Counted from the stretch's first letter, positions 584 through 23,643 are shown. The stretch: DNA of 24,000 nucleotides from Actimicrobium sp. CCI2.3 (GCF_034313845.1 NZ_JAVIWN010000003.1); one strand, 5' to 3'. Made by a program: numbers and translations. Notes: generated by a model not told the origin, from the letters alone.

Positions 584-1462
584 TTATTTCGGACACCCCA
601 ATGGAAGTATTTCTGCCATTTTCCGTTCAAAGACGGAGGGCGACAGGTTGCCCAATACGGAGTGCAAACGCGTGCAATTATAAAAGTCGACGATGTAGGA
701 AGTGACGTCCTTGCGGGCCTCTTCCTGGTTGGCATATCGCGTGCGCCAGACGCATTCCATCTTCAGATTCAGGAAGAAGCGTTCGGCAACTGCGTTGTCC
801 CAACAGTTACCTTTACGGCTCATGCTGGACACCAGACCGTACCGTTTCAGCAAGGCCTGATATTCGATGCTGGCGTACTGACTTCCACGGTCCGTATGTA
901 CGATCAATCCCGGTGGCGGATTGCGACTGGAAATGGCCATGCGTAGCGCTTCGCAGACCAGCGCAGCAGGCATAGCAGGCGCGGTGGCCCAGCCGATCAG
1001 CTTACGCGAGAACAGATCCAGTACCGTGGCCAGATATAGCCAACCGGTGTCGGTACGGATGTAGGTGATGTCGCTCACCCACGCGATGTTCGGCCCCGAC
1101 GGATTGAACTTCCGGTTGAGCACGTTGGGAGCAATCGCCAGGTCATGCTTGCTGTCGGTGGTGTGAATGAACTTGCGCTTCCACACCGGCTTCAAGCCCG
1201 CCTGGCGCATCAGGCTACGCGCTTTGTAGCGACCTATGCGAATGCCTTGCAGCGCCACCGCGCTGACTAGGCGCCGACTACCGTAGCTTTGACGGCTGGC
1301 GGCAAAGGCTGCCTTCAGGTGGACCGCTTCCTTCGTAAAAAGCGGTTTGGCAGGACGGGACTGTGCGTTGTAATACCCGGAACGGCTGACTGCCAGCAAC
1401 TGGCAACTACGGGCAGTCGATACGGCCTCCTTGTGTAACTGTGTCACGAGCTGGTAGCTCAT
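584..1462 (-). CDS. IS3-family transposase OrfB (DDE catalytic domain), copy A
   Basis: 292-aa ORF with the IS3/retroviral-integrase-type DDE context: WVSDITYIRT, HTDRGSQYAS, GNCWDNAVAERFF. It lies in the -1 frame relative to orfA. Confidence 0.9.
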   Translation of the reverse strand: MSYQLVTQLHKEAVSTARSCQLLAVSRSGYYNAQSRPAKPLFTKEAVHLKAAFAASRQSYGSRRLVSAVALQGIRIGRYKARSLMRQAGLKPVWKRKFIHTTDSKHDLAIAPNVLNRKFNPSGPNIAWVSDITYIRTDTGWLYLATVLDLFSRKLIGWATAPAMPAALVCEALRMAISSRNPPPGLIVHTDRGSQYASIEYQALLKRYGLVSSMSRKGNCWDNAVAERFFLNLKMECVWRTRYANQEEARKDVTSYIVDFYNCTRLHSVLGNLSPSVFERKMAEILPLGCPK

Positions 1463-2899: not shown

Positions 2900-3778
2900 A
2901 TGAGCTACCAGCTCGTGACACAGTTACACAAGGAGGCCGTATCGACTGCCCGTAGTTGCCAGTTGCTGGCAGTCAGCCGTTCCGGGTATTACAACGCACA
3001 GTCCCGTCCTGCCAAACCGCTTTTTACGAAGGAAGCGGTCCACCTGAAGGCAGCCTTTGCCGCCAGCCGTCAAAGCTACGGTAGTCGGCGCCTAGTCAGC
3101 GCGGTGGCGCTGCAAGGCATTCGCATAGGTCGCTACAAAGCGCGTAGCCTGATGCGCCAGGCGGGCTTGAAGCCGGTGTGGAAGCGCAAGTTCATTCACA
3201 CCACCGACAGCAAGCATGACCTGGCGATTGCTCCCAACGTGCTCAACCGGAAGTTCAATCCGTCGGGGCCGAATATCGCGTGGGTGAGCGATATCACCTA
3301 CATCCGTACCGACACCGGTTGGCTATATCTGGCCACGGTACTGGATCTGTTCTCGCGTAAGCTGATCGGCTGGGCCACCGCGCCTGCTATGCCTGCTGCG
3401 CTGGTCTGCGAAGCGCTACGCATGGCCATTTCCAGTCGCAATCCGCCACCGGGATTGATCGTACATACGGACCGTGGAAGTCAGTACGCCAGCATCGAAT
3501 ATCAGGCCTTGCTGAAACGGTACGGTCTGGTGTCCAGCATGAGCCGTAAAGGTAACTGTTGGGACAACGCAGTTGCCGAACGCTTCTTCCTGAATCTGAA
3601 GATGGAATGCGTCTGGCGCACGCGATATGCCAACCAGGAAGAGGCCCGCAAGGACGTCACTTCCTACATCGTCGACTTTTATAATTGCACGCGTTTGCAC
3701 TCCGTATTGGGCAACCTGTCGCCCTCCGTCTTTGAACGGAAAATGGCAGAAATACTTCCATTGGGGTGTCCGAAATAA
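2900..3778 (+). CDS. IS3-family OrfB (DDE), copy B
   Basis: The 292-aa protein is identical to copy A OrfB. In this copy orfB lies in the +1 frame, not the -1 frame, relative to orfA. Confidence 0.85.
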   Translation: MSYQLVTQLHKEAVSTARSCQLLAVSRSGYYNAQSRPAKPLFTKEAVHLKAAFAASRQSYGSRRLVSAVALQGIRIGRYKARSLMRQAGLKPVWKRKFIHTTDSKHDLAIAPNVLNRKFNPSGPNIAWVSDITYIRTDTGWLYLATVLDLFSRKLIGWATAPAMPAALVCEALRMAISSRNPPPGLIVHTDRGSQYASIEYQALLKRYGLVSSMSRKGNCWDNAVAERFFLNLKMECVWRTRYANQEEARKDVTSYIVDFYNCTRLHSVLGNLSPSVFERKMAEILPLGCPK

Positions 3779-4403: not shown

Positions 4404-5384
4404 CTACTCGATCCCCGCTAGCTGAAACCCGATCACGTTCGCGTACAGCGTGTCTTTCAATGGTCGGATCGTGTGCCGAGGAAATGCTTCACGAATTACC
4501 GGTCCGAAGAAGAACGCTCCGCCACCACCAAGCAGGACGTTGTCGATGTCGTTGCCGTCCTGAACGACACGCTTGAGTTCGGTGACCGCGTCCCGGACGA
4601 TCTTGCGTGCTGCCGGCAGGTGCCGTTCCAGATCGTATTCCTTCTGGAACACGATTGGCGGCACGCCACCGCGCAGGGCCCGGTCGATGCGGTCGTAGTC
4701 GTTGAACAAGGTGTTTTCCGATTTGCTGATCGCGTCGGCGAAGGCGCGCAGCACGTCGTGCATGCCACGGTTGACGGCACCGCTGCGCTTGTCGACCGTT
4801 TTCAAACCCTGACCGACCAGCCAGTCGAAGGTGCGCGCGCCGACGTCGATGATCAGATGACGTTGCGCCTTGATGGCCGCAAAGTCGTCGGTGCCGCTCA
4901 GCGCGAAGTGCATCAGGGCACCATGCGGCTGGGCCAGCACGCGCACCTTTCGCACGGTGACCGTCCGACCGCCGCCGACGTCGTGCAGGCCGGACATTCG
5001 CTTTTCGAGGGATGTCTTGTGCAGCGCGAAGGTCGACACCGGTAAGCCCACGACCAGCAGGTCGATGGCCGGCTCGCGCATGAGGTGCAGGGCCCCGCGC
5101 GCTAGCGCCAGATACTCGGGAGACTGGATGTAATCGTCATCCATGTGGCGCGTGCCGGCAAGGTCGTCGGCCAGTGCGGCATCGGGGCCGACCTCGTAGG
5201 TCAGGTCGCCGATCGTGATTGCGACTGTCCTGCGCTGGCGGCCGAGTGCCGCCGCCAGGTCGCGGCCGCTCGTGACCGGTGCGATCGACGGGAAATGGGC
5301 GCAGCGCACGGGACCGCGCCCGGCGCTGACGACATATTTGGTGTTGCCATATCCGACATCGATTGCGCGTACGACTGGTTCCAT
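4404..5384 (-). CDS. parM: ParM/StbA-family actin-like segregation ATPase (326 aa)
   Basis: I place the start at ATG 5384 (SD GAGG 6 nt upstream), giving MEPVVRAIDVGYGNTKYVV... (actin-fold phosphate-1 motif). Further motifs are DVGARTFDW and LLGGGGAFFF. The 88 in-frame codons upstream (to 5648) look non-coding. Confidence 0.85.
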   Translation of the reverse strand: MEPVVRAIDVGYGNTKYVVSAGRGPVRCAHFPSIAPVTSGRDLAAALGRQRRTVAITIGDLTYEVGPDAALADDLAGTRHMDDDYIQSPEYLALARGALHLMREPAIDLLVVGLPVSTFALHKTSLEKRMSGLHDVGGGRTVTVRKVRVLAQPHGALMHFALSGTDDFAAIKAQRHLIIDVGARTFDWLVGQGLKTVDKRSGAVNRGMHDVLRAFADAISKSENTLFNDYDRIDRALRGGVPPIVFQKEYDLERHLPAARKIVRDAVTELKRVVQDGNDIDNVLLGGGGAFFFGPVIREAFPRHTIRPLKDTLYANVIGFQLAGIE

Positions 5385-5486
5385 AGTGACCTCAGACAGG
5401 ATTCGGGAACCAGCGTAGCGCTGCCCTTCATGAACGACCACGCGCAAAGCCCCTGTTGGCGCACCGCTTTCGGCAGCACGTCGTGT

Positions 5487-5586
5487 GAAAGTCGTCACCA
5501 CGATGGAGCCACGCACGACTTTCTGACGTCGGCCCCCTGATTGGCCGGTGCCATCTCCGCAAAAGTCGTGCGTGGTAACGACTTTC
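5487..5586. promoter_or_regulatory. parC-like centromere/operator: four copies of AAAGTCGT as two nested inverted pairs
   Basis: The outer pair is GAAAGTCGTCACC (5487-5499) and GGTAACGACTTTC (5574-5586), 12/13 complementary. The inner pair is CCACGCACGACTTT (5509-5522) and AAAGTCGTGCGTGG (5562-5575), 14/14 complementary. The block lies 100-200 bp upstream of the parM-like start, with a TTGACA -35-like hexamer on the minus strand at 5660-5665. Confidence 0.5.
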
Positions 5587-5718
5587 ATGCAAGCTGGTGG
5601 CGGGGCGTGTCGGGCCGACGGACACGGTTCGGAACTAGAGGTACCCACCGCCCCAACGCTGTCAAGGGCGCGCGAGCCGGTCTGAAATTATTGGACAATT
5701 ATTTGGTGCGATTTGTCC

Positions 5719-5824: not shown

Positions 5825-6468
5825 CATGCCGGCTTGACCGGCCGCCGTTGTGTTATCCCTGATCGTTTCCCTGCTTGTCGATGGTCTGCCTGACCGCCGT
5901 CGATACCGTGTTCCGCCCGACGGACACTGAGGATGTGCGCCGGTCTGCTCGATGGACTCGCGTGCTGCGGCACTGGATGCCGCTTTGGTTCGACCATGTT
6001 TATTCCACTTGCAATGCATGACGCCGCTACTTGATGGCGACCGTACGATTGTCCCCTTGAGGGAGGCCGTGCCGGTGAGTCATGCCCCGTTCGTATCCGC
6101 CTCGCTACGGTGAGGGGCGGCGCCAGACGGCCGGGGCAAGTGTGAGGAGAAGCCGAATTTCGGACTCGGGAACAATCCCGGGTGCTGCACCTTTCTCCGA
6201 GGAAGGTGCGTCGCGTTCATCGCGACAGGTCAGATTGTCTCCAAGCGAGCGTCTGGTTTGGCAGCGCATTTTAACGATCCACACCGGCCGTGCAGGACCT
6301 GGCGGCGACAAATGACTGGCTCTGTTTTTACCGCGCGGGAAGTCGCGCGGGCTGCTTGCATGACTGATTTGTTTGGCGCACGAGTCCGGAATCCCTCGTC
6401 GTGCCTGGTCTGTCGGGATTCCATATATCCGCTCGCGCGCATCTCGCGGGCCCGAACTGGAGCGCATC

Positions 6469-7554
6469 ATGCGAGCCAAAAAATATTTGCCACGCGAACG
6501 TCAGGGCAGGGCCGCTGCACCTGCCTATCATCCTGCACTACCAGACCAGACGCCATGGGCTGCCGTGCTGATGACGATCATCCGTCGGCACAACTGGTCT
6601 CACGCCGTGCGCGATAAGGGGGTGTCGCACAAGACCATGGCGGTGCGGCAGACATTCTTGTTCGCGTTCTTCCGGGAGCTGCGATTGAATGGCGAGGTGC
6701 CGTATCGCGTCGATCCGCGCCGGCTTGGCAACCGGCATATCCGGTTCATGGTGCAGCGCTGGCTAGATCGAGAGTTGTCGCCGGCGACGCTGCAGCAATA
6801 CCTCAGTTTCCTGCGTACTTATGCAGGCTGGATTGGCAAGCCGCAACTGGTCATGCCGGTCGAGCGGTACATCAATGATCCGAAACGCACGCGTCGTCGC
6901 TATTGCGCCGAGGTCGATAAAAGCTGGTCTGCGCGCGGGATCGATGCTGAGCAGATATTTACTGCGATGGCGGCGATCGACCGGTACGCCGCCGCACAAC
7001 TGGCGGTGAAATCGGCGTTCGGATTGCGCCGCAAGGAAGCGGTCATGCTGCAACCGCAACGGCGAGTTGTCACGGCGCGGCAGGCGGGTATCGCGGAGGA
7101 CGATGACGCGCTGTATCTCGATCTGCTCAAGGGGACGAAAGGTGGCCGTCAGCGTTATCTGCCGATCGACAGTGACGACAAGCGGCGCGCGCTACAACGT
7201 GCCTGCGAATTGGTGCGCAGTCTCGAAGACCATCTGGGCAATCCGGCACGTACGCTGAAACAGAACTTGCGGCGGATCGATTACGTGATGGCAAAGCTGG
7301 GACTCACGCAGAGCGAGCTGGGCGTCACTGGGCACGGCTTGCGGCACGATTTCGCCAATGATTTATATGAGAAAGAATCCGGTGCGACTGCACCCCTGCG
7401 TGGCGGAGCTGTGGTTGATTCGGCTACCGATCAGGCTGCGCGACTAGCGGTCGCAAGACAGCTCGGTCATGGTCGAATCCAGATCGCCGGAGCCTATCTT
7501 GGTGGACGAAAACGGATTGGTGCCAAAGGTTCGCCGTCCGGGTCGAACGAGTGA
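6469..7554 (+). CDS. Tyrosine recombinase / integrase-family protein (361 aa)
   Basis: The start is placed at ATG 6469 (GGAG 6 nt upstream). The N-terminal SAM-like region is ...KTMAVRQTFLFAFFRELRL...SPATLQQYLSFLRTYAGW. Catalytic-domain motifs are FGLRRKEAV (Arg), GHGLRHDFAN (H-x-x-R) and LGHGRIQIAGAYLG (His plus nucleophile Tyr). Confidence 0.85.
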   Translation: MRAKKYLPRERQGRAAAPAYHPALPDQTPWAAVLMTIIRRHNWSHAVRDKGVSHKTMAVRQTFLFAFFRELRLNGEVPYRVDPRRLGNRHIRFMVQRWLDRELSPATLQQYLSFLRTYAGWIGKPQLVMPVERYINDPKRTRRRYCAEVDKSWSARGIDAEQIFTAMAAIDRYAAAQLAVKSAFGLRRKEAVMLQPQRRVVTARQAGIAEDDDALYLDLLKGTKGGRQRYLPIDSDDKRRALQRACELVRSLEDHLGNPARTLKQNLRRIDYVMAKLGLTQSELGVTGHGLRHDFANDLYEKESGATAPLRGGAVVDSATDQAARLAVARQLGHGRIQIAGAYLGGRKRIGAKGSPSGSNE

Positions 7555-8038: not shown

Positions 8039-8060
8039 GCAGACGTTACCTGCCCTTGTT
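8039..8060 (+). repeat. Conserved non-coding motif, copy 2 (GCAGACGTTACCTGCCCTTGTT)
   Basis: It matches 5802-5824 with one substitution and one 1-nt indel. It is preceded by hairpin CCGGT-cctgc-ACCGG (8020-8034) and followed by ACCGG-ttgcggagtaat-CCGGT. Confidence 0.6.
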
Positions 8061-8230
8061 GTGACCGGTTGCGGAGTAATCCGGTTTCCGGTTTGTCGCC
8101 GCAGTTGTTGGTGGTGACTTGATCAGCGTTCCTCCCGGGCGCGGTCGAGATGTAAGCGCTATCTCGGCTGACATCTCATGTGGTCGTGCGGTGATGGTGC
8201 TTTGCGCACCGACCGTATGTCTACCGAGCA

Positions 8231-8270
8231 GGCTCTCCGTTCTCCGGAACCGAGAGCCTTTTTGTTGTTC
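8231..8270 (+). terminator. Rho-independent terminator-like hairpin
   Basis: GGCTCTC-c-GTTC / tccg / GAAC-c-GAGAGCC gives 11 paired positions with one C/C mismatch and a tetraloop (8231-8258). It is followed directly by TTTTTGTTGTTCTTT. Confidence 0.6.
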
Positions 8271-8343
8271 TTTCCATCCTGCGGGGACCATCCGTTTCCC
8301 TGTGGGGGAAGTGGCGTCCCCATTTTTATGTATTGGAGCTGCC

Positions 8344-8814
8344 ATGTCGAATCACTATTCACCATCCCGTCCAACTGCATCGGTGACGGACGCCGAAGAA
8401 CGTGCCTGGATCAGCTTTTATGATCACATTGATGACGCGTCTGTTGCGGCGGAATTGCTCAGCTATATCGAAGCGGATCCGGAACTCAAGCGCACCCGGT
8501 CGGGTTTGTATCTGTGTGCGAGGCAGTCCGTCAGACGTGCCAATGCCCGGTATGCGCGGGCATTGCGTGTCGGTCAGTCTGTACGGGCCGTGATCGATGT
8601 GACGGTGTTTGCGCCGGTCATTCTGACCCGAAGGCTGTTGCGAGTGTTGGTGTTTTATGCAGTGGAGATGCTTCCCCAACTGCGTTGGCATCAAGCGGCG
8701 GAAAGTCAGCTGCCAAAGGCAGTGGAAAAGAAGACGGATTTCCCGGCGGTACTGCCGCGGTCCGTCTTTGAACGGAAAATGGCAGAAATACTTCCATTGG
8801 GGTGTCCGAAATAA
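8344..8814 (+). CDS. Hypothetical protein, 3' end replaced by IS-derived sequence (chimeric ORF)
   Basis: ATG 8344 has GGAG 7 nt upstream. Translation is MSNHYSPSRPTASVTDAEERAWISFYDHIDDASVAAELLSYIEADPELKRTRSGLYLCARQ.... The last 18 codons (RSVFERKMAEILPLGCPK*) are the tail of IS OrfB read from the solo IS end. I recognise no family. Confidence 0.45.
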   Translation: MSNHYSPSRPTASVTDAEERAWISFYDHIDDASVAAELLSYIEADPELKRTRSGLYLCARQSVRRANARYARALRVGQSVRAVIDVTVFAPVILTRRLLRVLVFYAVEMLPQLRWHQAAESQLPKAVEKKTDFPAVLPRSVFERKMAEILPLGCPK

Positions 8815-8827
8815 CTTGACCACTACA
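8761..8827 (+). mobile_element. Solo right-end remnant (67 bp) of the same IS3-family element
   Basis: 8761-8827 is identical to the last 67 nt of copy B (3725-3791), including the terminal repeat ...GGGGTGTCCGAAATAACTTGACCACTACA. The rest of the IS is absent. Confidence 0.9.
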
Positions 8828-8927: not shown

Positions 8928-11360
8928 TCAGCCAGCCACCATCCGATCCAGATCAATCACCGCATCAGCCATCGCCGTCAGTTCCGGCGTCTGCGATACA
9001 AAAAATTCCTGCGCATACCCGCCCAAGCGCAGCACCTCGCGCTTCATCGCCATGAACATCCGCTTGCGCTCGGGGTCGAGTGGTCCGTCGGCTTCGTCGG
9101 AGAACAGCGTGCTGTACTGCCGTCCGGCATCCTGCGCCAGATACAGTGCTATGGCGCGTATCAGGCACTCGTTGATGAAAACCCGTTCGCCACCGCTCAT
9201 CTGGGTCAGGCTCTTGCTGTCATCCGACTCACCGTCATGGACGACGATATCGAAACCTTCGCGCAGGTCTCCTTTGCCGGTTTCAACGAGGGTTCTGATC
9301 GAGACCGTGAAGCGCGGTCCGTAGCAGGCAAGCAGGAGATCGTTGGCCAGTCCGGATAGCTGCGGTCCTGCGTCATCGATGGCCAGGGCGATCACGCCGT
9401 CATGGGACAAACATTTGGTGAGCAGGAGCCAGGTGCCTAGCGCCTGTTCGATTGCCGCGATGGCTGTGCTTGCAGCAGTAATGCGCGTAGCCAGTTCGTC
9501 GAGTCGGTTGTCACAGGCGGTGGCTGCCTGCTGGTCGCGAATGGCATTCAGGTAGACGGCGTCGGTGGCGGCAAGGGTTCGTTGTGCTGCCTCGATCGTG
9601 TGCTGCCCAGCGACCAAACTGGATGTGTCGAACGGCGGTGGAAGGGCGCTCAATAAGGTATCGATTCGCCGCATTGAAGTTTGCTGGCGCTGCTGCTCCT
9701 GTTCGCGTCTGCTGGAGATTTCGGTACGTGCGGCGGCAATCGCAAGTCGTTCTGCGCGGTCTTCTTCGGTGTCGCCAACTCCCGCTTGCGGCAGCGCATC
9801 CCGTTCCGCTTCGATGCGTTGCAGTTCTTGCCGGGCGTGTGCGACCTCACCATGACGGGCAGCGAAGACAACGAGTGCGGCGCTGCGCTGGCGGGACCGG
9901 GACAGCTGCTGTTCCGCCCGCTCAAGCATTGGTCGTGGATCAGGTGAACGGGCTAGTGCCGCATTCGTGACGGCGATCTTTTCCAGAACCGCCGTGCGTT
10001 CTTGATGCAGGCGCGCGAGCTGCATTTCCGCAGACGGCTTCATCGTCTGCGCAGTGCGGGCATCACCAAGCAATTCGCAGCGACCCTGCAGTTCGTTCCC
10101 CGCACACGGAACCTGCGACGTTAGCCCGAAACGCCTGGTCAGTTCCTGCATCCGCAGTGCCGCCTGTCCGGCTTCGCGTTCGATGGTGTGCAGTTGCAGT
10201 TGATGCTCTTTGGCGCTCGTGCAAAGCGTCTCGTACTGCATCATGTCGTCGCGCAGTCGGGTGAGCCGTTGCTCTCTGATGGACGTGATGTTGTTGGCGA
10301 GCGGAAGGTGGGGCACGGCACGCGAAATGGTCGACGCTTGCCGCAGTAGCTGCCGGTATTGCGTACATCGCCGGTCGAGTTGCGTTCGTGCCGACTGCAG
10401 CGACGCCGTCTGCCGGGCGACCCGGCGTTCGACGGTTGAAAGCCGCTCGGCTTCGCGCCTGTCCTGCGCATCAAGTGCTGACAGTGCGCACTGTGCGTCG
10501 GCGGTCAGGACGGCGCGCTCGTCATCCAATTGCTTGCGGAGCGATGCTGTCTGATGGGCGAGTTGCTGTTCCGTGACCAGTGTTGCCAGTGCTGACTTGG
10601 CGGCCTCCAGAGTGGTGTGCGCCAACTGCCGTTCCTGTTCTGCAGCGGTCGTTTGCGTCTGCACGTCGCCCAGTCGTAGGCGTGCATCGCGGTGACCGGA
10701 CTCCTCGCGCTGCAGATCCGCAAGTGCTTGCCGCCGTGTCTCCAGTCCCGTACGCAGCAGTTTCGCGGTGGTGGCAGCGTGCCCGCCGAGTGTGCTGATG
10801 GCGTCAAGCCCGAGCAAGTCTGCCAGCAGGGCTTTGATGTCGGCATTCCGGTAAGCCGACAATGGCCGTCGGCCCTGCGCCGAAAAGACCGACGTAAAAA
10901 ACGTTTCCGGACTGCCGAGCAAGACATCCACGCAGCGCGCATAGGTCTCCACCTTCCCATCCGAGACAGTGCCATCGTCCAGCGCGACCGGCTCCCACCG
11001 TCCCGCATGATCGACATGCAGATAGGCCTCGGTTCTCTTGCGGCCATTCACCCGAAAAATCAGTTGCGAACGATAGCGCCGGCCGGCATGTTCCCAAGTC
11101 AGTGTCTTGGCGCTTTCGGGAAGATAAATGTGGTCGTAATACGAGAAGCTTCCGAGACCATCGGCACCGGCCCGCGAAGGCATCACTGGATACGGCGTTG
11201 CGTTGTCGATGATGGTTGTCTTGCCGCGACCGTTCATGCCTGTGATGGCGACGAGGCGGGCATCGCCGGCCAGTTGTTCGAAGTCGAGCGTGATGCTGTC
11301 GCGCCCGAGCCCGTCGCGAATGCCTTTAAATCCCTTCAGGTGCAATGACAGTGGTTTCAT
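8928..11360 (-). CDS. SbcC/Rad50-like SMC-type coiled-coil ATPase (810 aa), third gene of operon
   Basis: SD AAGGAGA lies 7 nt upstream of ATG 11360. Walker A is GMNGRGKTT (aa 41-49, nt 11214-11240) and the Q-loop is FSAQG (aa ~159-163). A central region of about 450 aa is rich in Q/R/E/A/L, consistent with a coiled coil. The ABC signature is MSGGE (aa 721-725) and Walker B/D-loop is TLFSDEADGPLD (aa 751-762). Confidence 0.9.
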   Translation of the reverse strand: MKPLSLHLKGFKGIRDGLGRDSITLDFEQLAGDARLVAITGMNGRGKTTIIDNATPYPVMPSRAGADGLGSFSYYDHIYLPESAKTLTWEHAGRRYRSQLIFRVNGRKRTEAYLHVDHAGRWEPVALDDGTVSDGKVETYARCVDVLLGSPETFFTSVFSAQGRRPLSAYRNADIKALLADLLGLDAISTLGGHAATTAKLLRTGLETRRQALADLQREESGHRDARLRLGDVQTQTTAAEQERQLAHTTLEAAKSALATLVTEQQLAHQTASLRKQLDDERAVLTADAQCALSALDAQDRREAERLSTVERRVARQTASLQSARTQLDRRCTQYRQLLRQASTISRAVPHLPLANNITSIREQRLTRLRDDMMQYETLCTSAKEHQLQLHTIEREAGQAALRMQELTRRFGLTSQVPCAGNELQGRCELLGDARTAQTMKPSAEMQLARLHQERTAVLEKIAVTNAALARSPDPRPMLERAEQQLSRSRQRSAALVVFAARHGEVAHARQELQRIEAERDALPQAGVGDTEEDRAERLAIAAARTEISSRREQEQQRQQTSMRRIDTLLSALPPPFDTSSLVAGQHTIEAAQRTLAATDAVYLNAIRDQQAATACDNRLDELATRITAASTAIAAIEQALGTWLLLTKCLSHDGVIALAIDDAGPQLSGLANDLLLACYGPRFTVSIRTLVETGKGDLREGFDIVVHDGESDDSKSLTQMSGGERVFINECLIRAIALYLAQDAGRQYSTLFSDEADGPLDPERKRMFMAMKREVLRLGGYAQEFFVSQTPELTAMADAVIDLDRMVAG

Positions 11361-11384: not shown

Positions 11385-12629
11385 TCAGCATCTGCTGATC
11401 GCTGGATTCGTCAACGGGTTGTCCTGCCCGAGAATGTGCATGGCGATCTCTTCGGGCGTCCCGCATTGCAGCGCCTGCAGGCATGCTTGCAGCGGTTCGG
11501 CGTGGACTTGCGTCACTTCAGCCCAAGCATTGACTTTGGCTACGAGACCAGCGGCTCGCGCGATACCGGCCGCGCGGGTGCGGACCACCGGGAGCAGACG
11601 TCCTTCGAACTTGACCTCGGCGGCGTCACGCAACAATCGCCGGATAGCCGTGCGATCGACCTGATGCCGGTCTTCCTCCGGGACCTGCCAGCGCAAGCGA
11701 ATGAAGGTATCGGCAACATCATCCCTCTTGGCGATGAGCGCCAGTTCGGCCATGTCCGGAAGTCCATCGAAGGTGATGTCGATGGTGCGGCGGGCCGGTG
11801 TGGCGTTCAATGTACAGTCGCTGCTGGCGGCATCGATGTGCCAGAGCAGAAATCCCTTGATACCGTGTTCGCCGTAATGGAAGCGGCCGATTGATCCGGC
11901 GTAGGCGATGCACCGTCCGTCCTGTTTCCACTGCTGATGCTGGTGGATGTGCCCGAGCAAAAAGGCGCTGGCACCGGCTGCGAACAGCGAGCCGGTAGTG
12001 AATTCGTGATCCGGTCCCGCCATTGGCACACCGTGTTCGGTCACACAACCGTTGACGGTGCCGTGCGACACGCCGATGGTTGGGATACCCCGGCGGCGTG
12101 CGTCGTCATTTAATGAGGCAAATCCGCGCAGCACTCGAGCGAGGTGTTCGCCGGTTGCATTCGCTGCCTCGCAGGCACCGACTGTCGCTGCGACCTGCGC
12201 CTTGTTGACGGTCGGTACGCACGAGAACAGCGCCTCGGTACCGTCGGGCAGCGCATCGAAGCGCCAGGAGGGTGCGGCCTGCCAGCGTCCGCCAATCAGC
12301 GCCACCTGACCGATGCGGTCGGCGACGAAGACCGGATACCGTCCACCGAGCAGCCGGAAAATATCCAGCGTTCCGGGCGGCTCATGACTGAAGGTGCCTT
12401 GCAGCATGAGTACCGGACAGTGGTCGGCCAGTCGCCGGAGTTGGGTCGCCAGCGCGACGAAAGCGGGCGCGTGGACATCGAGTGCGTGATCGGTGGCATC
12501 GCCGGACACGACGGCACAATCGACCCCGTACTGGATCGCTGCATCAATGGCAAAGCCGAAACAGCGATCGGCTTCGATCAAGTTTTTGCTGGCGTAATGG
12601 AGGTCGGAGAAGTGGGCAAGCCGGATCAT
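11385..12629 (-). CDS. SbcD/Mre11-like calcineurin-type metallophosphoesterase (414 aa), second gene of operon
   Basis: The ATG overlaps the upstream stop (ATGA at 12626-12629), with GGAGGA just upstream. Motifs are I FSDLH (aa 7-11), II GDATDH (43-48), III-like GTFSHE (78-83), IV GVSHG and V LGHIHQH. Confidence 0.9.
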   Translation of the reverse strand: MIRLAHFSDLHYASKNLIEADRCFGFAIDAAIQYGVDCAVVSGDATDHALDVHAPAFVALATQLRRLADHCPVLMLQGTFSHEPPGTLDIFRLLGGRYPVFVADRIGQVALIGGRWQAAPSWRFDALPDGTEALFSCVPTVNKAQVAATVGACEAANATGEHLARVLRGFASLNDDARRRGIPTIGVSHGTVNGCVTEHGVPMAGPDHEFTTGSLFAAGASAFLLGHIHQHQQWKQDGRCIAYAGSIGRFHYGEHGIKGFLLWHIDAASSDCTLNATPARRTIDITFDGLPDMAELALIAKRDDVADTFIRLRWQVPEEDRHQVDRTAIRRLLRDAAEVKFEGRLLPVVRTRAAGIARAAGLVAKVNAWAEVTQVHAEPLQACLQALQCGTPEEIAMHILGQDNPLTNPAISRC

Positions 12630-13918
12630 GATTCCTCCGCCAGGCGGGCATCCGCAGTCGGCGCGATGGTGTGGGCAATCTGGTCGATCAGCGAGCCGGG
12701 TTCGAGTTCAAAGTTGCGCAATTCGTTGAGCGCACGACGGCGACCCTGCGGATTACGCTTCCAGCCAGCACCCCAGCGTTTGTTGGCATACTGCTCGTAG
12801 CGTTCGGCATCGATACCGATCTGTTCGGCGAAGGCGATGATGTCGTCGGTGGTGATCGTGTCCTGTGCAGGACGCGCTGCCGGCGTTTCCTGTTCTGGTT
12901 CCGGCGGTGCTTCAGCGACCAACTGGGCATCGCCTTTGCCTTCAAGGATCTCGGCCGAACGGGCTGCATCCGCGATAGCCAAGGTGTCGTCGTCGTTATG
13001 CAGCAGCGCAGTCACATCACACGGCGCCTCGATCGCAATGAGCCATTGGGCAACGCGCACGGGTCGGCCATCGTCGTCGATGCGAGTGATGTCGGTGAGT
13101 TTCTTGGTGAAATAGAACGGCGTGCGCTTGTCGTCGAGGAAGCCGGAAATACGCCCACCACGCAGGAATGCCATGGTCTGAAAGGTCTGCATCGCGGCGT
13201 TCATTGCATAAAAACTGTTCGTCGGCAGCTCGAACGCATCGGTCGACGGGATGCCCGGCACGAAGAAGACGAAGCGGCCGGACAGGTTGCATTGCCGGTG
13301 CTGGTATTCCGGGCAGTGTTCTGGATCGCAAATACCGCCGTTGTCGGCGCGCGGGATCGCCTTGCGTCCGCCGAAAATGCGGATGACGCGCTTGCTGTCG
13401 GGATCTCTGGGCACTGGTGCATACGTCATGCAGTGCCGAACCTGCCCATCGGGCGAGTACTGCGACCAGTAGCGCCGATCGTTCGCGCCCCACGCAACAA
13501 GTCCGTGCGGCATCACGGTGTGCCAGTCATCAGACGGAAAAATGGCAGGAAAGCGATACAAACGCCGGATGCCGTCGCCCCGGTCTTCGCCGAATGCGTA
13601 GAGCAGTTGTGCGGCCGTGGCAGGATTGGGAAAGTCCCCTGGTCGCACCGTGAAATAAGGCACGTTCCTCGGTACCAGAGGGATCGTCAGATTGGGAACT
13701 GCCTGAGTGATGTCGCGCGCGATATCGTCGAACGAGCGGTTGGTTTGCACACCATGTTCATACAACGATTTGGCGCGCGGATTGGCGGCAGCATTCTTGG
13801 TGAGGACCTTGATGCCGGCGCGGATTTTGCCGGCGGTGCGCAGGGCGGCGGTGCGTTGCCCGAGCAGGGATGGAGGCTGATTATTCGCGCCGCTGACCGT
13901 AATGTTGGGGGTTGCCAT
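12626..13918 (-). CDS. Uncharacterised 430-aa protein with Cys/His cluster, acidic/Pro linker and small basic C-terminal domain; first gene of operon
   Basis: SD AGGAG lies 6 nt upstream of ATG 13918 and the stop is coupled to the next gene. Amino-acid composition is protein-like, unlike the antisense 445-aa ORF. The cluster is C163...C197-DPEH-C202-PEYQHRQ-C210. I recognise no catalytic motif. Confidence 0.8.
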   Translation of the reverse strand: MATPNITVSGANNQPPSLLGQRTAALRTAGKIRAGIKVLTKNAAANPRAKSLYEHGVQTNRSFDDIARDITQAVPNLTIPLVPRNVPYFTVRPGDFPNPATAAQLLYAFGEDRGDGIRRLYRFPAIFPSDDWHTVMPHGLVAWGANDRRYWSQYSPDGQVRHCMTYAPVPRDPDSKRVIRIFGGRKAIPRADNGGICDPEHCPEYQHRQCNLSGRFVFFVPGIPSTDAFELPTNSFYAMNAAMQTFQTMAFLRGGRISGFLDDKRTPFYFTKKLTDITRIDDDGRPVRVAQWLIAIEAPCDVTALLHNDDDTLAIADAARSAEILEGKGDAQLVAEAPPEPEQETPAARPAQDTITTDDIIAFAEQIGIDAERYEQYANKRWGAGWKRNPQGRRRALNELRNFELEPGSLIDQIAHTIAPTADARLAEES

Positions 13919-14115
13919 GGTTGGCTCCTGTGGGGTGGGTGTGGTTACAGGATGCCTGGGGAGGCGAGTTGTTCAAGTGGGCCGGTAGGTTCCATAGCGG
14001 TGATGTAATCGGGACGTACTGCTGACTTCAGATTTGACCCACCACAAAACACACTCCACCCAGCGAAAAGGTGTAATACACTTGTGCTACATTCACCGTT
14101 CATCAGGAGTGAAGC

Positions 14116-14400
14116 ATGTCCACGACGACGATACGATTAACTGAAGAACTGAAATTGCGGGTTGCCAGCGCAGCTGATCGCTCCGGTTCGACGGCGCACA
14201 GTTTTATTCTGCAAGCGATTGCCGAGAAGATTGAGAAGGAGGAATTGCGCAGTACCTTTGATGAAGCCGCTGAGGAACGCTACGCCAACGTGATCGCGTC
14301 AGGTAACACCATATCGTGGACTGACATGCGCTGCTACCTGGAAGAGCGTGTTGCAGGCAGGAAGCCTTCGCGCCCGGTGGCCGGGAAACTGGTCCGATAG
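14116..14400 (+). CDS. Ribbon-helix-helix (CopG/ParD-like) antitoxin
   Basis: SD AGGAG is present upstream. The N-terminus TTIRLTEELKLRVASAADRSGSTAHSFILQAIAEKIE is a classic RHH strand-helix-helix. Its stop lies 2 nt before the toxin start. Confidence 0.8.
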   Translation: MSTTTIRLTEELKLRVASAADRSGSTAHSFILQAIAEKIEKEELRSTFDEAAEERYANVIASGNTISWTDMRCYLEERVAGRKPSRPVAGKLVR

Positions 14401-14402
14401 TC

Positions 14403-14696
14403 ATGTCGCGTATAGAACTGGCACCAGAGGTGGCCGATGACCTAGATCGGATCTTCGATCATCTTTGCGCCCATGAAGTCGAACACGTATCTGAGCGCAT
14501 CGGCGAGATCATCCAGGCCATTGCCGTGCTGGAGTCCAATCCGTTTATCGGACGACCGGCCGAAAACGGAAAACGGGAACTCGTGATCGGACGGTGCACA
14601 CGCGGATACTTGGCTTTGTATCGGTATGTCGTCGAGATCGATACGGTGTTTGTGCTAGCCATCAGAGGGCAGCGAGAGGCCGGTTATAGCGGGTAG
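14403..14696 (+). CDS. RelE/ParE-superfamily type II toxin
   Basis: 97 aa: MSRIELAPEVADDLDRIFDHL...NPFIGRPAENGKRELVIGRCTRGYLALYRYVVEIDTVFVLAIRGQREAGY. This is the ParE/RelE-family fold pattern, tightly coupled to the RHH gene. Confidence 0.8.
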   Translation: MSRIELAPEVADDLDRIFDHLCAHEVEHVSERIGEIIQAIAVLESNPFIGRPAENGKRELVIGRCTRGYLALYRYVVEIDTVFVLAIRGQREAGYSG

Positions 14697-15666: not shown

Positions 15667-17058
15667 TCAGCGGTAGCTTTGCTGAGAGTGAGCCTCCGCA
15701 GTAGCGTCATTCTTATTCGATTTGGTTGCGTCGCCAGGCTTTGCACCATGGATCGGTTGGCGTTCGGCGCTACGCCTCGAAGTGGGCGACATCTTCTCCT
15801 TGTTGTTCACCGCGACAGGATTCGAAGGATGTGGTGGCGGTGGATTTTTTGCGGCGGGTGGCTTTGGTCGATCGGGTGCAGGCTGTGCGGCGAAAAGTTG
15901 TGGCGACGTGACTGGCTTGCCTGATCCAGGCACTGGGAGAGGATTTGACGACGATTGAGGTTGTGCCATCGAGACAGGTCTCGTATCACCGTATTCGTGT
16001 GAGGCTTTATTATCTGGTGTCAGCGGATGGGGTAGGGCAGCAACTGGTGCGGCTGCTTTGTTGGGCACGACAGGCTGAACGGATGCTGCTGCATGCTCTT
16101 GAGTTGGTGGGTGTTGGTGGACCTGTGCCATTTCCGCATGAACTATTTGTGGTGGTGGCAACGCAGCCGGCGGGTGCCCTGCGACATACGACGGAATTGC
16201 CTTTGCAGAGATTGGTTCGGGGGCCGCAACCCTGACCACCGGCGGCAGCGATGCGGCTAGATGTGCCTGTGCTGGAACGGAAGAATTCACCGCTTGTCCG
16301 CTTGCGGTGGCACTTGCCGGCGCGACGATGGTGACGTTTGTCACGTTTCTGATGTTCGTCACATTGTTCGTGACATTGTTATTGCTGATGGCATTGTTGG
16401 TGACCGAATTATTGTTGTAAGTATTGTTGCTATTGCTGTTGACGTGAATCCGCATCCCTTCATTCACCACTGGCGGCGCGCTGACGACGACCGCAGGTGC
16501 GGTGCCGATCGGCGCCGGAATAATCAATCCCAAACGTGACCCCGGTGGTGCCGGTACAAACACACCCTCTGGTCCGACAGGTCGAAGACCGACCGCCACA
16601 CCCACGGTTACTTGAGCAATAGCGATATTGATATTGGGTGCCGGTGGGACGAATGACACGCCTGGTGCGGCCCAAAATCCATTCACGAACACCACCGAAC
16701 CGTCACGGTTTTCATAATAGGGATTCACCCATCCGTAACCCGGTTGTGGCGGCGCGGCCCAGCGACCGTGTGCCCATACCCAGTTACCCTGCCAGACCCA
16801 GTAGCCGCCCGTCCAGATCGCATCTGGATAGGGCCGATAGGGCACTGTTTCCACCAGCATTGGCGGTGGTGCCCACTGCACGCGAACCGGGGGCGGCTGA
16901 TAAATCGGCGGTTCGACATAGACGCTCACGACCGGTTGTGGTGCCGGTGCCAGATAGACTACCTCTGCGGGTGGACGTACATAAACCCGGGGTGGATAAA
17001 CTGGCGTCGCTGCGCAGCCAGTCAGCAACACAGCGATGGCGAATGAAAGTTTTTTCAC
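15667..17058 (-). CDS. Lipoprotein with WxxGxW-type repeats, Asn-rich insert and Pro-rich tail (463 aa)
   Basis: GTG start with AGGA upstream. The signal peptide plus lipobox is MKKLSFAIAVLLTG|C. Aromatic repeats are GGYWVWQGNWVWAHGRWAAPP...GYGWVNPYY. An N-rich block spans aa 207-242 and the C-terminal half is Pro/Ala/Gln-rich. Confidence 0.8.
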   Translation of the reverse strand: MKKLSFAIAVLLTGCAATPVYPPRVYVRPPAEVVYLAPAPQPVVSVYVEPPIYQPPPVRVQWAPPPMLVETVPYRPYPDAIWTGGYWVWQGNWVWAHGRWAAPPQPGYGWVNPYYENRDGSVVFVNGFWAAPGVSFVPPAPNINIAIAQVTVGVAVGLRPVGPEGVFVPAPPGSRLGLIIPAPIGTAPAVVVSAPPVVNEGMRIHVNSNSNNTYNNNSVTNNAISNNNVTNNVTNIRNVTNVTIVAPASATASGQAVNSSVPAQAHLAASLPPVVRVAAPEPISAKAIPSYVAGHPPAALPPPQIVHAEMAQVHQHPPTQEHAAASVQPVVPNKAAAPVAALPHPLTPDNKASHEYGDTRPVSMAQPQSSSNPLPVPGSGKPVTSPQLFAAQPAPDRPKPPAAKNPPPPHPSNPVAVNNKEKMSPTSRRSAERQPIHGAKPGDATKSNKNDATAEAHSQQSYR

Positions 17059-23010: not shown

Positions 23011-23643
23011 CAATGCAAATTTCGGATCGTGGCCGAGCGCACTGTCAACGAACTCAACGGTACCTCCTGCCTGGCGCTCGAAGATGTGGCCCCCGCGAAA
23101 AAACAGATCATCGCCTCGCGCTCGTTTGGCCAGCCGGTGCTGACCATCGACGAACTCGGTGAGTCGGTTGCCAGTTACATGACCCGCGCCGCCGAAAAAT
23201 TACGCTTGCAGGGTTCGGTGTGCGAAGCGATCCAGGTCTTCGTGCAGACCAATCCGTTCAAGGCGTCAGACCGGCAATACAGCAACGCGGTCGTGGTGCC
23301 GCTGCCGAATGTGTCGGGCGATACCCGCTTGCTGATCCGCGCGGCCCTGTTCGGCCTGGAACAGATTTACCGGCCTGGCTACTACTACAAGAAAGCCGGT
23401 GTGATCCTGCAGGGTATTTCCAGCGCCTCAGTTCAGCAGCAATCGCTGTTTTCCACCTTCGGCGATGGCGACAAATCGGAAGCGATGATGATTACGCTCG
23501 ACGGATTGAACCAGCGTTTCGGCAAGGGCGCGGTGAGCGTGGCCGCCGCCGGTATCCGCAACGACTGGGCCATGAAGCGCGAACGGAAGACGCCGAACTA
23601 CACGACGTGCTGGAGCGAAATTCCGGTGGCCAGGGCGAATTAG
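23011..23643 (+). pseudogene. umuC: umuC (Y-family DNA polymerase V catalytic subunit), 5'-truncated: C-terminal ~210 codons only
   Basis: Translation is ...KFRIVAERTVNELNGTSCLALEDVAPAKKQIIASRSFGQPV...YYYKKAGVILQG...NDWAMKRERKTPNYTTCWSEIPVARAN*. From memory it aligns with E. coli UmuC from ...LERTVRELRGEPCLQLEE... to the C-terminus. The polymerase palm/finger half and any umuD are absent, and an in-frame stop lies at 22975-22977. Confidence 0.8.

Follow-up and report, generated by a model that had tools for sequence, protein, structure and literature searches.

What does a protein of the recombination directionality factor (RDF) family do at the head of an operon whose other genes encode a nuclease-like protein and an ATPase? 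The question is raised by a 24,000-nucleotide (nt) stretch of DNA from Actimicrobium sp. CCI2.3 (GCF_034313845.1, NZ_JAVIWN010000003.1; hereafter the window), in which the lead gene of a three-gene operon (12626..13918, minus strand) encodes a Gp3-like (PF18897) protein of 430 amino acids (aa), an assignment based on its open reading frame (ORF), Pfam match, homologues and fold match. The second gene encodes a 414-aa SbcD/Mre11-like metallophosphoesterase (11385..12629, minus strand) and the third an 810-aa SbcC/Rad50-like SMC-type ATPase (8928..11360, minus strand). Because no serine integrase is in view and the SbcD/SbcC-like pair is always next, the Gp3-like protein most likely serves the nuclease and not the control of excision. 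In its general form, with the protein working as a cofactor of the nuclease instead of as the RDF of an integrase, we consider this reading rather probable.

Although a preliminary description of this DNA had held the lead protein to be unassignable, it matched Pfam PF18897 (Gp3-like, "recombination directionality factor-like") over aa 30-260 with 108.1 bits (cutoff 23.6; E=6.9e-31), and UniRef names a 100% identical protein from Actimicrobium sp. CCI2.3 "recombination directionality factor". Given that this is a known family, whose name is already attached to the protein, what had seemed unassignable resolves to ordinary family membership. More than 1,300 Gp3-like homologues were scored, most of them full-length and approximately 55% identical, and homologues carry precomputed PF18897 assignments. 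When 1.84 billion cluster representatives were searched exhaustively with HMMER, 506 clusters had E<=0.001, mostly with proteins of 400-500 aa. The phiC31 gp3 protein was found to match PF18897 too, more weakly (64 bits). No match for the Gp3-like protein was found in PHROGs, NCBIfam or PADLOC.

An AlphaFold2 model of the Gp3-like protein, built with 77 homologues, had a mean predicted local distance difference test (pLDDT) value of 71, with values >90 for aa 30-120 and 355-420. By Foldseek, the best match of this model in the PDB was the phiC31 RDF, chain 9teh_I (E=3.9e-4, prob 1.00, target template modelling (TM) score 0.47), which was also its only PDB match with E<=0.001. The best viral structure matches were uncharacterised phage proteins and one annotated RDF. 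Some 20 Ku70/80 chains ranked below the phiC31 RDF (E 0.016 to 0.8), and this resemblance was rejected, the TM scores being about 0.08, the root-mean-square deviation about 25 Å and prob <0.1; weak matches to single-stranded DNA-binding protein (SSB)/OB-fold structures and to ERF also recurred below the phiC31 RDF, none of them significant. In the 9teh structure, the phiC31 RDF is seen in the excisive synapse as a three-pronged clamp, which coordinates a Zn ion and whose basic channel, some 20 Å in width, holds the integrase zinc domain by its tip, at the coiled-coil base (10.1101/2025.05.02.651858). No pairwise similarity between the Gp3-like protein and phiC31 gp3 was detected by BLASTP, no match to gp3 was obtained by hhalign with an alignment of close homologues (Neff 2.3), and sequence searches of the PDB, using either the protein or its profile, gave no match. 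Nevertheless, given the shared PF18897 membership and the Foldseek match to the phiC31 RDF, the resemblance to phiC31 gp3 put forward in the preliminary description is correct. Taken together, the data show that the Gp3-like protein is a PF18897 member with a fold like that of the solved phiC31 RDF.

In order to follow the gene neighbourhood across species, we relied on a scan of one genome per species, which gave 264 loci encoding a Gp3-like relative (80 fetched; most Burkholderiales and Rhodocyclales). In each of the 78 loci with downstream sequence (78/78), an SbcD-like gene lay directly downstream of the Gp3-like gene. An SbcC-like gene then followed in most loci (clustered in 56), sometimes with inserted cargo (mer genes, for example) in between. 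In the window, the stop codon of the Gp3-like gene overlaps the start of the SbcD-like gene as ATGA (12626..12629, minus strand; GAGGAATCATGATCC), with GGAGGAA preceding the SbcD-like start, an arrangement that suggests translational coupling; this 4-nt overlap was also the commonest Gp3-SbcD spacing among the homologous loci. Within PLSDB, the Gp3-like gene was found on 77 plasmids and the SbcD-like gene on 73, from eight genera, with near-identical genus counts for the two genes (Burkholderia 29/29, Cupriavidus 22/22, Ralstonia 3/3). In the plasmid records compared, they lay 1-2.5 kb apart on the same strand. Pairwise protein distances over 52 loci were correlated both between Gp3-like and SbcD-like proteins (r=0.80) and between SbcD-like and SbcC-like proteins (r=0.78; Mantel p=0.001). 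In their inheritance, the three genes act as a single module. Synteny, translational coupling and co-divergence lend strong support to the functional tie between the lead protein and the downstream nuclease-ATPase that the preliminary description had suggested. In 35 of the 80 loci, the gene immediately upstream of the Gp3-like gene, and in the same orientation, encoded a Cys/His-rich DUF1173 protein of approximately 410-430 aa (e.g., L003, 8531-9814, and L042, 1012-2247, with 33 other loci). DUF1173, which the window lacks, might serve as a fourth, optional partner.

The two downstream proteins were identified largely by their motifs. Matches of the SbcD-like protein to the Metallophos, sbcd and Mre11 models were weak and all below curated cutoffs (18.9 bits for TIGR00619 sbcd, cutoff 77.65), and Rad50 models scored 10.6-19 bits against cutoffs of 700-1000. 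The only strong match of the pair was that of the SbcC-like protein to PHROG 77, "SbcC-like" (E=2.9e-29), its matches to SMC_N, AAA_23 and SbcC_Walker_B falling below Pfam gathering scores. The metal motifs of the SbcD-like protein are kept, with D9/H11, D44, H82, H189 and H227/H229 at least 95% conserved among 72 homologues. Conservation of at least 95% was likewise found for the Walker A motif of the SbcC-like protein, G41-x-G-x-G-K47-T, and an MSGGE signature and a DE Walker B are visible in its translation. The nuclease-ATPase pair is apparently active. The mid-protein cysteine pair of the ATPase, C419-x8-C428 (VPCAGNELQGRCE), showed 88-89% conservation across 56 homologues; it may represent a variant form of the CxxC zinc hook known from Rad50/SbcC. 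On the 3' side of the SbcC-like gene are ORFs of 154 and 99 aa (8046-8823, minus strand) for which none of the related loci has a homologue; their composition looks non-coding, and as they are unlikely to be genes, they were not counted in the module.

The lead gene starts with an ATG eight bases downstream of an AGGAG ribosome-binding site. The latter lies in the intergenic region that separates the operon from divergent ParD/ParE genes (13919..14115), which we presume to be the promoter region, although a simple sigma-70 scan did not find a consensus promoter in it. The ORF, cysteine positions and stop/start overlap reported in the preliminary description were all borne out by the sequence, as was the absence of a P-loop. 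The maximum Kyte-Doolittle hydropathy over 19 residues was only 1.14, so that the protein has no transmembrane segment, again as described. AlphaFold2 and conservation also agreed with the proposed division into three parts.

The first part is a clamp-like alpha/beta core domain, aa 28-300 (13019..13837, minus strand), delimited by AlphaFold2 secondary structure and pLDDT, conservation, isoelectric point (pI) and the Pfam match. It is basic (pI 9.35) and starts with a conserved G30-K-I-R33-x-G35 motif. The "beta-like stretch" said to follow its cysteines corresponds to a beta-hairpin at aa 214-233 in the model, but a helix, aa 236-251, is found there as well. Next comes an acidic, Pro-containing linker, aa 301-356 (12851..13018, minus strand; pI 4.05). 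Across 94 full-length representatives, one from each 50%-identity cluster, the linker was little conserved, low in occupancy and variable in length, and in the model it has low pLDDT at aa 302-309 and 331-352, with one predicted helix at aa 311-325.

The third part, aa 357-430 (12629..12850, minus strand), is a subfamily-specific helical C-terminal domain and a candidate docking domain. In the full-length AlphaFold2 model, it consists of 4-5 helices (aa 357-429) with pLDDT >90, and when modelled alone it again gave a confident 4-5-helix bundle (pLDDT 84). Its invariant residues are Y377, W382-G-x-G-W386 and G392-R393. The domain, with its W-G-x-G-W motif, is kept even in the 37%-identical homologue of pHG1, and is not present in the 244-aa phiC31 gp3. 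It had no Pfam match, and Foldseek found no fold match in the PDB for the isolated model (best E=7.4). Of the earlier view that this domain is helical and basic, the first half was confirmed, whereas overall the domain is not basic (pI 5.0; 10 K+R vs 13 D+E) and holds a single basic patch (KRWGAGWKRNPQGRRR); it is the core that is basic. The acidic linker and helical C-terminal domain are specific to the bacterial SbcCD-linked subfamily.

The core also carries a putative structural Zn site, C163 ... C197-x4-C202-x7-C210 (13289..13432, minus strand), proposed from cysteine positions, conservation and alignment with gp3. All four cysteines were 100% conserved in the 94 diverged representatives, but C300, the sole further cysteine of the protein, and nearby histidines were not. 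This conservation is far beyond chance. A weak local hhalign alignment between a diverse bacterial profile and a three-phage gp3-like profile (E=8e-4, prob 24%) paired C202-P203 with gp3 C137-P138, part of the C135-G-C137-P segment, and F229-x3-T233-x-S235 with gp3 F173-x3-T177-x-S179. In phiC31 gp3 there are only three cysteines (117, 135 and 137), of which C137 alone aligns with a cysteine here (C202). By this alignment, the cluster would seem to occupy the same region of the fold as that of gp3, with ligands that do not correspond one-to-one. Within gp3 itself, C117 and G119 are essential for integrase binding (PMC5814800). The structural zinc site suggested in the preliminary description is plausible, given that the cysteines are invariant and that the solved gp3 holds Zn. 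The gp3-like proteins of Microbacterium phage Abigail (L094, 4953-5702) and Arthrobacter phage VResidence (L095, 4992-5708) are without the Zn-site cysteines of phiC31 gp3; both are annotated as RDFs and are encoded between a Cas4 exonuclease and a Holliday-junction resolvase.

We propose that the zinc-stabilised Gp3-like clamp would act as the accessory third component of an SbcD/SbcC-like nuclease-ATPase of conjugative elements in Betaproteobacteria, the three proteins being produced together and forming one machine. The basic channel of the core might bind DNA, be it ends or branched or hairpin structures, or alternatively a part of the ATPase that is acidic or coiled-coil, in a manner analogous to the grip of gp3 on the integrase zinc domain where the coiled coil has its base; any specific choice among these ligands is held with much less confidence than the general role. 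The flexible linker and C-terminal domain would tether the core to the nuclease-ATPase, with the C-terminal domain as the part that docks. Such a complex may process the DNA of the element itself, i.e., ends, transfer intermediates, or substrates of recombination and repair, during maintenance, transfer or establishment.

The elements that carry the module are genomic islands, some of them clearly integrative, and MOBH megaplasmid backbones, not phages. In chromosomes, the recurring neighbours were DUF1173 (35 loci), a 330-aa protein with a weak Phage_integrase match (26 loci), AlpA, RadC and DUF5983. In Noviherbaspirillum, the module comes next to a P4-type integrase and AlpA, on their inner side, and copper-resistance cargo follows it. 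On pHG1 and pMOL28 (MOBH, MPF_T), the module stands beside PRTRC, DUF932 and bactofilin genes, in a region that is syntenic between both plasmids. A common megaplasmid backbone of pMOL28, pHG1 and pRALTA has been described, and the accessible part of that account does not include the module genes in it (PMC2864759).

The window copy of the module is located in a chromosomal island. Between 4 and 14 kb of the window, the GC content amounts to 0.60-0.63, compared with 0.50-0.55 outside. Two IS3-family orfB transposase genes with identical Pfam scores lie in inverted orientation (584-1462, minus strand, and 2900-3778, plus strand; orfA at 1459-1749), with a truncated YhcG/DUF1016 PDDEXK nuclease gene between them (2128-2751). 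This looks like a composite or inverted insertion sequence pair that disrupted the YhcG gene. Further genes encode an actin-like segregation protein (ALP_N and MreB-like_C; 4404-5648, minus strand), an Integrase_1/Phage_int_SAM_2 tyrosine-recombinase-like protein (6373-7554, plus strand) and, divergent from the operon across the 197-bp intergenic region, a ParD-like (DUF6290)/ParE toxin-antitoxin pair (14116-14696, plus strand). None of the actin-like, Integrase_1 and ParDE genes was conserved near the module in the 80 related loci. Beyond them are a gene for a 463-aa Pro/Asn-rich protein that has no Pfam match and whose N-terminus (LLTGC) resembles that of a lipoprotein (15667-17058, minus strand), and an apparently N-terminally truncated umuC that retains only IMS_C and DUF4113, i.e., C-terminal domains of the UmuC/DinB type (23029-23643, plus strand). 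Neither a phage structural gene nor a serine recombinase was found in the window, and the region looks like an integrated, partly decayed mobile element.

A phage replication or recombination origin had been favoured in the preliminary description. However, tblastn against 50,697 phage records revealed no relative of the bacterial Gp3-like subfamily, nor did a pattern scan of 2.9 M viral contigs (IMG/VR), and the neighbourhoods are those of islands and conjugative megaplasmids. Nor was a large serine integrase (a Resolvase/Recombinase-type ORF) found among the window genes. When the phiC31 and Bxb1 integrases were compared by phmmer with six-frame translations of 92 loci (1.5 Mb of flanks), a single weak match of 28 bits was obtained, at one locus. 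Within these 1.5 Mb of sequence flanking the homologues, to which the search extended, no large serine integrase was found. Given that neither phage relatives of the subfamily nor a serine integrase turned up in these searches, the RDF and phage-origin readings are not supported for this subfamily.

The wider family offers a further view of its function. Actinophage gp3-like genes lie in an early DNA-metabolism block (229 genomes; 100 Microbacterium phages), in the order Cas4-family exonuclease, gp3-like, Holliday-junction resolvase, primase and DNA polymerase I. Many Microbacterium phages are lytic and are not known to carry an integrase. To judge from gene content, the theme common to the Gp3-like family is DNA processing, not site-specific recombination. 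This is in line with a published proposal in which proteins that have other functions were co-opted as serine-integrase RDFs (PMC3132441). Phages of the phiC31 type might later have recruited a relative of this DNA-metabolism protein as their RDF. Taken further, the Gp3-like proteins could ancestrally have been a DNA-end-binding or coiled-coil-gripping third subunit of a bacterial Mre11/Rad50-like machine carried by conjugative elements, with the phiC31 RDF as a co-opted offshoot, a proposal that we make tentatively and regard as possible but doubtful. In such an ancestral subunit, the channel of about 20 Å would clamp DNA or the coiled coil or hook of the SbcC-like protein while the C-terminal domain docks on the nuclease, and the acidic linker could compete in cis for the channel of its own protein.

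Several observations weigh against a nuclease cofactor. Linkage and co-divergence of the three genes would also follow from simple co-inheritance of an operon. The model of the core is only moderately confident, with pLDDT of 55-83 over aa 150-300. Among the relatives, a copy on a Janthinobacterium plasmid (45% identity) has no SbcCD-like pair next to it and lies beside an AcaB-family regulator and RadC, copies on Candidatus Manganitrophus plasmids (26-29% identity) are followed by toprim and helicase genes, and a distant copy on pPNAP01 is approximately 10 kb from the SbcD/SbcC-like pair. Because some relatives do not adjoin an SbcCD-like pair, the partnership of Gp3-like protein and nuclease may be lineage-specific.

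As the main alternative for the biological role, the three genes might constitute an anti-phage or anti-plasmid defence system that works like Lamassu or Wadjet, in which the SMC/Rad50-like ATPase and nuclease would be the effector and the Gp3-like protein would sense the target or confer specificity. The layout of SMC-like ATPase, nuclease and accessory protein, the location of the module on mobile elements and the toxin-antitoxin genes nearby in the window would all suit such a system, and the ATPase has weak PADLOC matches to mad3 (E=3e-10) and LmuB (1e-5). Nevertheless, its matches to mad3, LmuB, PtuA and DndD are weak enough to be consistent with generic similarity of ABC/SMC heads, and neither the Gp3-like nor the SbcD-like protein was matched in PADLOC-DB v2. 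Moreover, the module belongs to a conserved pHG1/pMOL28-type backbone on 73-77 plasmids of eight genera, unlike patchy defence cargo, and its recurrent neighbours (DUF1173, RadC, AlpA, DUF932, PRTRC) are housekeeping or establishment genes of the elements and not defence islands. We consider defence unlikely. An independent role in DNA metabolism, as a DNA-binding, annealing or replication-accessory protein that forms no complex with the SbcCD-like proteins, would accord with the distant relatives found beside toprim and helicase genes or alone, with the phage relatives found among Cas4 exonuclease, resolvase, primase and polymerase genes, and with the weak Foldseek matches to SSB/OB-fold, ERF and Ku structures. 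Those SSB, ERF and Ku matches, however, are not significant (TM scores of about 0.08; prob <0.1 for Ku), the adjacency of Gp3-like and SbcD-like genes is invariant in the subfamily and often accompanied by translational coupling, and the subfamily-specific C-terminal domain looks like a tether, all of which makes this alternative distinctly improbable. Finally, a genuine RDF, which would bind a recombinase whose gene lies in another part of the element and turn it towards excision, the adjacency to the nuclease being incidental, is suggested by the family name, by homology to phiC31 gp3 and by recombinase-like genes nearby (Integrase_1, 6373-7554; the 330-aa weak Phage_integrase match, 26 loci; a pHG1 tyrosine recombinase), but is very hard to credit, since the target of gp3 is a large serine integrase, through its zinc domain and coiled coil, and none was found in the window or the 1.5 Mb of flanks, the nearby recombinases are tyrosine-type and do not form a consistent partner, homologues reside on non-integrating megaplasmids, no subfamily relative was found in phage records (tblastn) or viral contigs (pattern scan), and the nuclease is the single invariant neighbour.

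The nuclease-cofactor reading bears on a protein of practical interest, given that the phiC31 integrase and its RDF gp3 are widely used tools of genome engineering. To our knowledge, the gp3 family has no known function beyond RDF activity, and a large bacterial Gp3-like branch, locked to an Mre11/Rad50-like nuclease and with no serine integrase found nearby, provides a concrete, testable hypothesis for the native function of gp3. The three-gene module, the C-terminal domain of the subfamily and their bearing on this native function appear to be undescribed in the literature searched. If our reading is true, the operon would encode a three-component SbcCD-like complex, of a kind so far without description in bacteria. 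This complex may matter for the maintenance and establishment of the DNA of large conjugative elements, and a possible role in megaplasmid DNA maintenance is suggested by the position of the module in a conserved backbone region of pHG1 and pMOL28. The label "recombination directionality factor" on some bacterial Gp3-like proteins is probably misleading. Should the proposed ancestral subunit prove real, more than 1,000 proteobacterial family matches would be nuclease cofactors, some of which are named RDF in UniRef.

Among known systems, the window module has a counterpart in the pHG1/pMOL28/pRALTA-type backbone, where the same gene order is annotated as [quoted passage not shown]. Identities to the window proteins are 37-39% (Gp3-like) and 53-56% (SbcD-like), the C-terminal motif is kept, and the context is again conjugative (MOBH). 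The lineage of pHG1, pMOL28 and Paraburkholderia plasmids differs by an extra gene of 171-177 aa between the SbcD-like and SbcC-like genes, which has no Pfam match, overlaps the SbcC-like start (L089, 14983-15498; L090, 14999-15514; L092, 11810-12343) and has no equivalent in the window. Further downstream, this plasmid lineage repeatedly has a gene of the PAPS-reductase family, and its module looks like a four-gene variant.

Like SbcCD and Mre11-Rad50, the downstream pair combines metallophosphoesterase motifs with an ATPase whose head is SMC-type and whose long central region comes with a cysteine pair in mid-protein. It differs from them in that curated SbcD, SbcC and Rad50 models score far below their cutoffs and in that the putative hook is C-x8-C, not CxxC. 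We know of no third subunit in canonical bacterial SbcCD. In the eukaryotic-type MRN/MRX complexes the counterpart of the lead protein would be Nbs1/Xrs2, as a third, non-catalytic subunit with a flexible tether; the likeness to Nbs1 would be one of function only, the Gp3-like protein having no homology to it. The second serine-integrase RDF type, Bxb1 gp47, belongs with the SbcD-like protein to the calcineurin-like phosphoesterase superfamily, each falling below the Pfam threshold. Gp47 is, however, a protein of 255 aa, compared with 414 aa for the SbcD-like protein, which pairs with an SbcC-like ATPase, and BLASTP between the two gave no meaningful alignment (best segment 16 aa, E=0.067). 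With no more than a superfamily in common and no pairwise similarity, the suggestion that members of both RDF families adjoin here does not hold.

Of the known systems compared, phiC31 gp3 is the counterpart of the lead protein, which differs from it in length (244 aa for gp3 vs 430 aa here, with the acidic linker and helical C-terminal domain added), in setting (the phage early region for gp3; here conjugative elements, with the SbcD/SbcC-like pair following) and in partner (a serine integrase for gp3, none being found here). The two nevertheless belong to the same Pfam family, gp3 being the best structural match of the Gp3-like protein, and they have in common a basic core, a Zn-binding segment that is putative in the Gp3-like protein, an N-terminal G-[KR]-x-[RH]-x-G motif, a C-P knuckle and an F-x-x-x-T-x-S motif.

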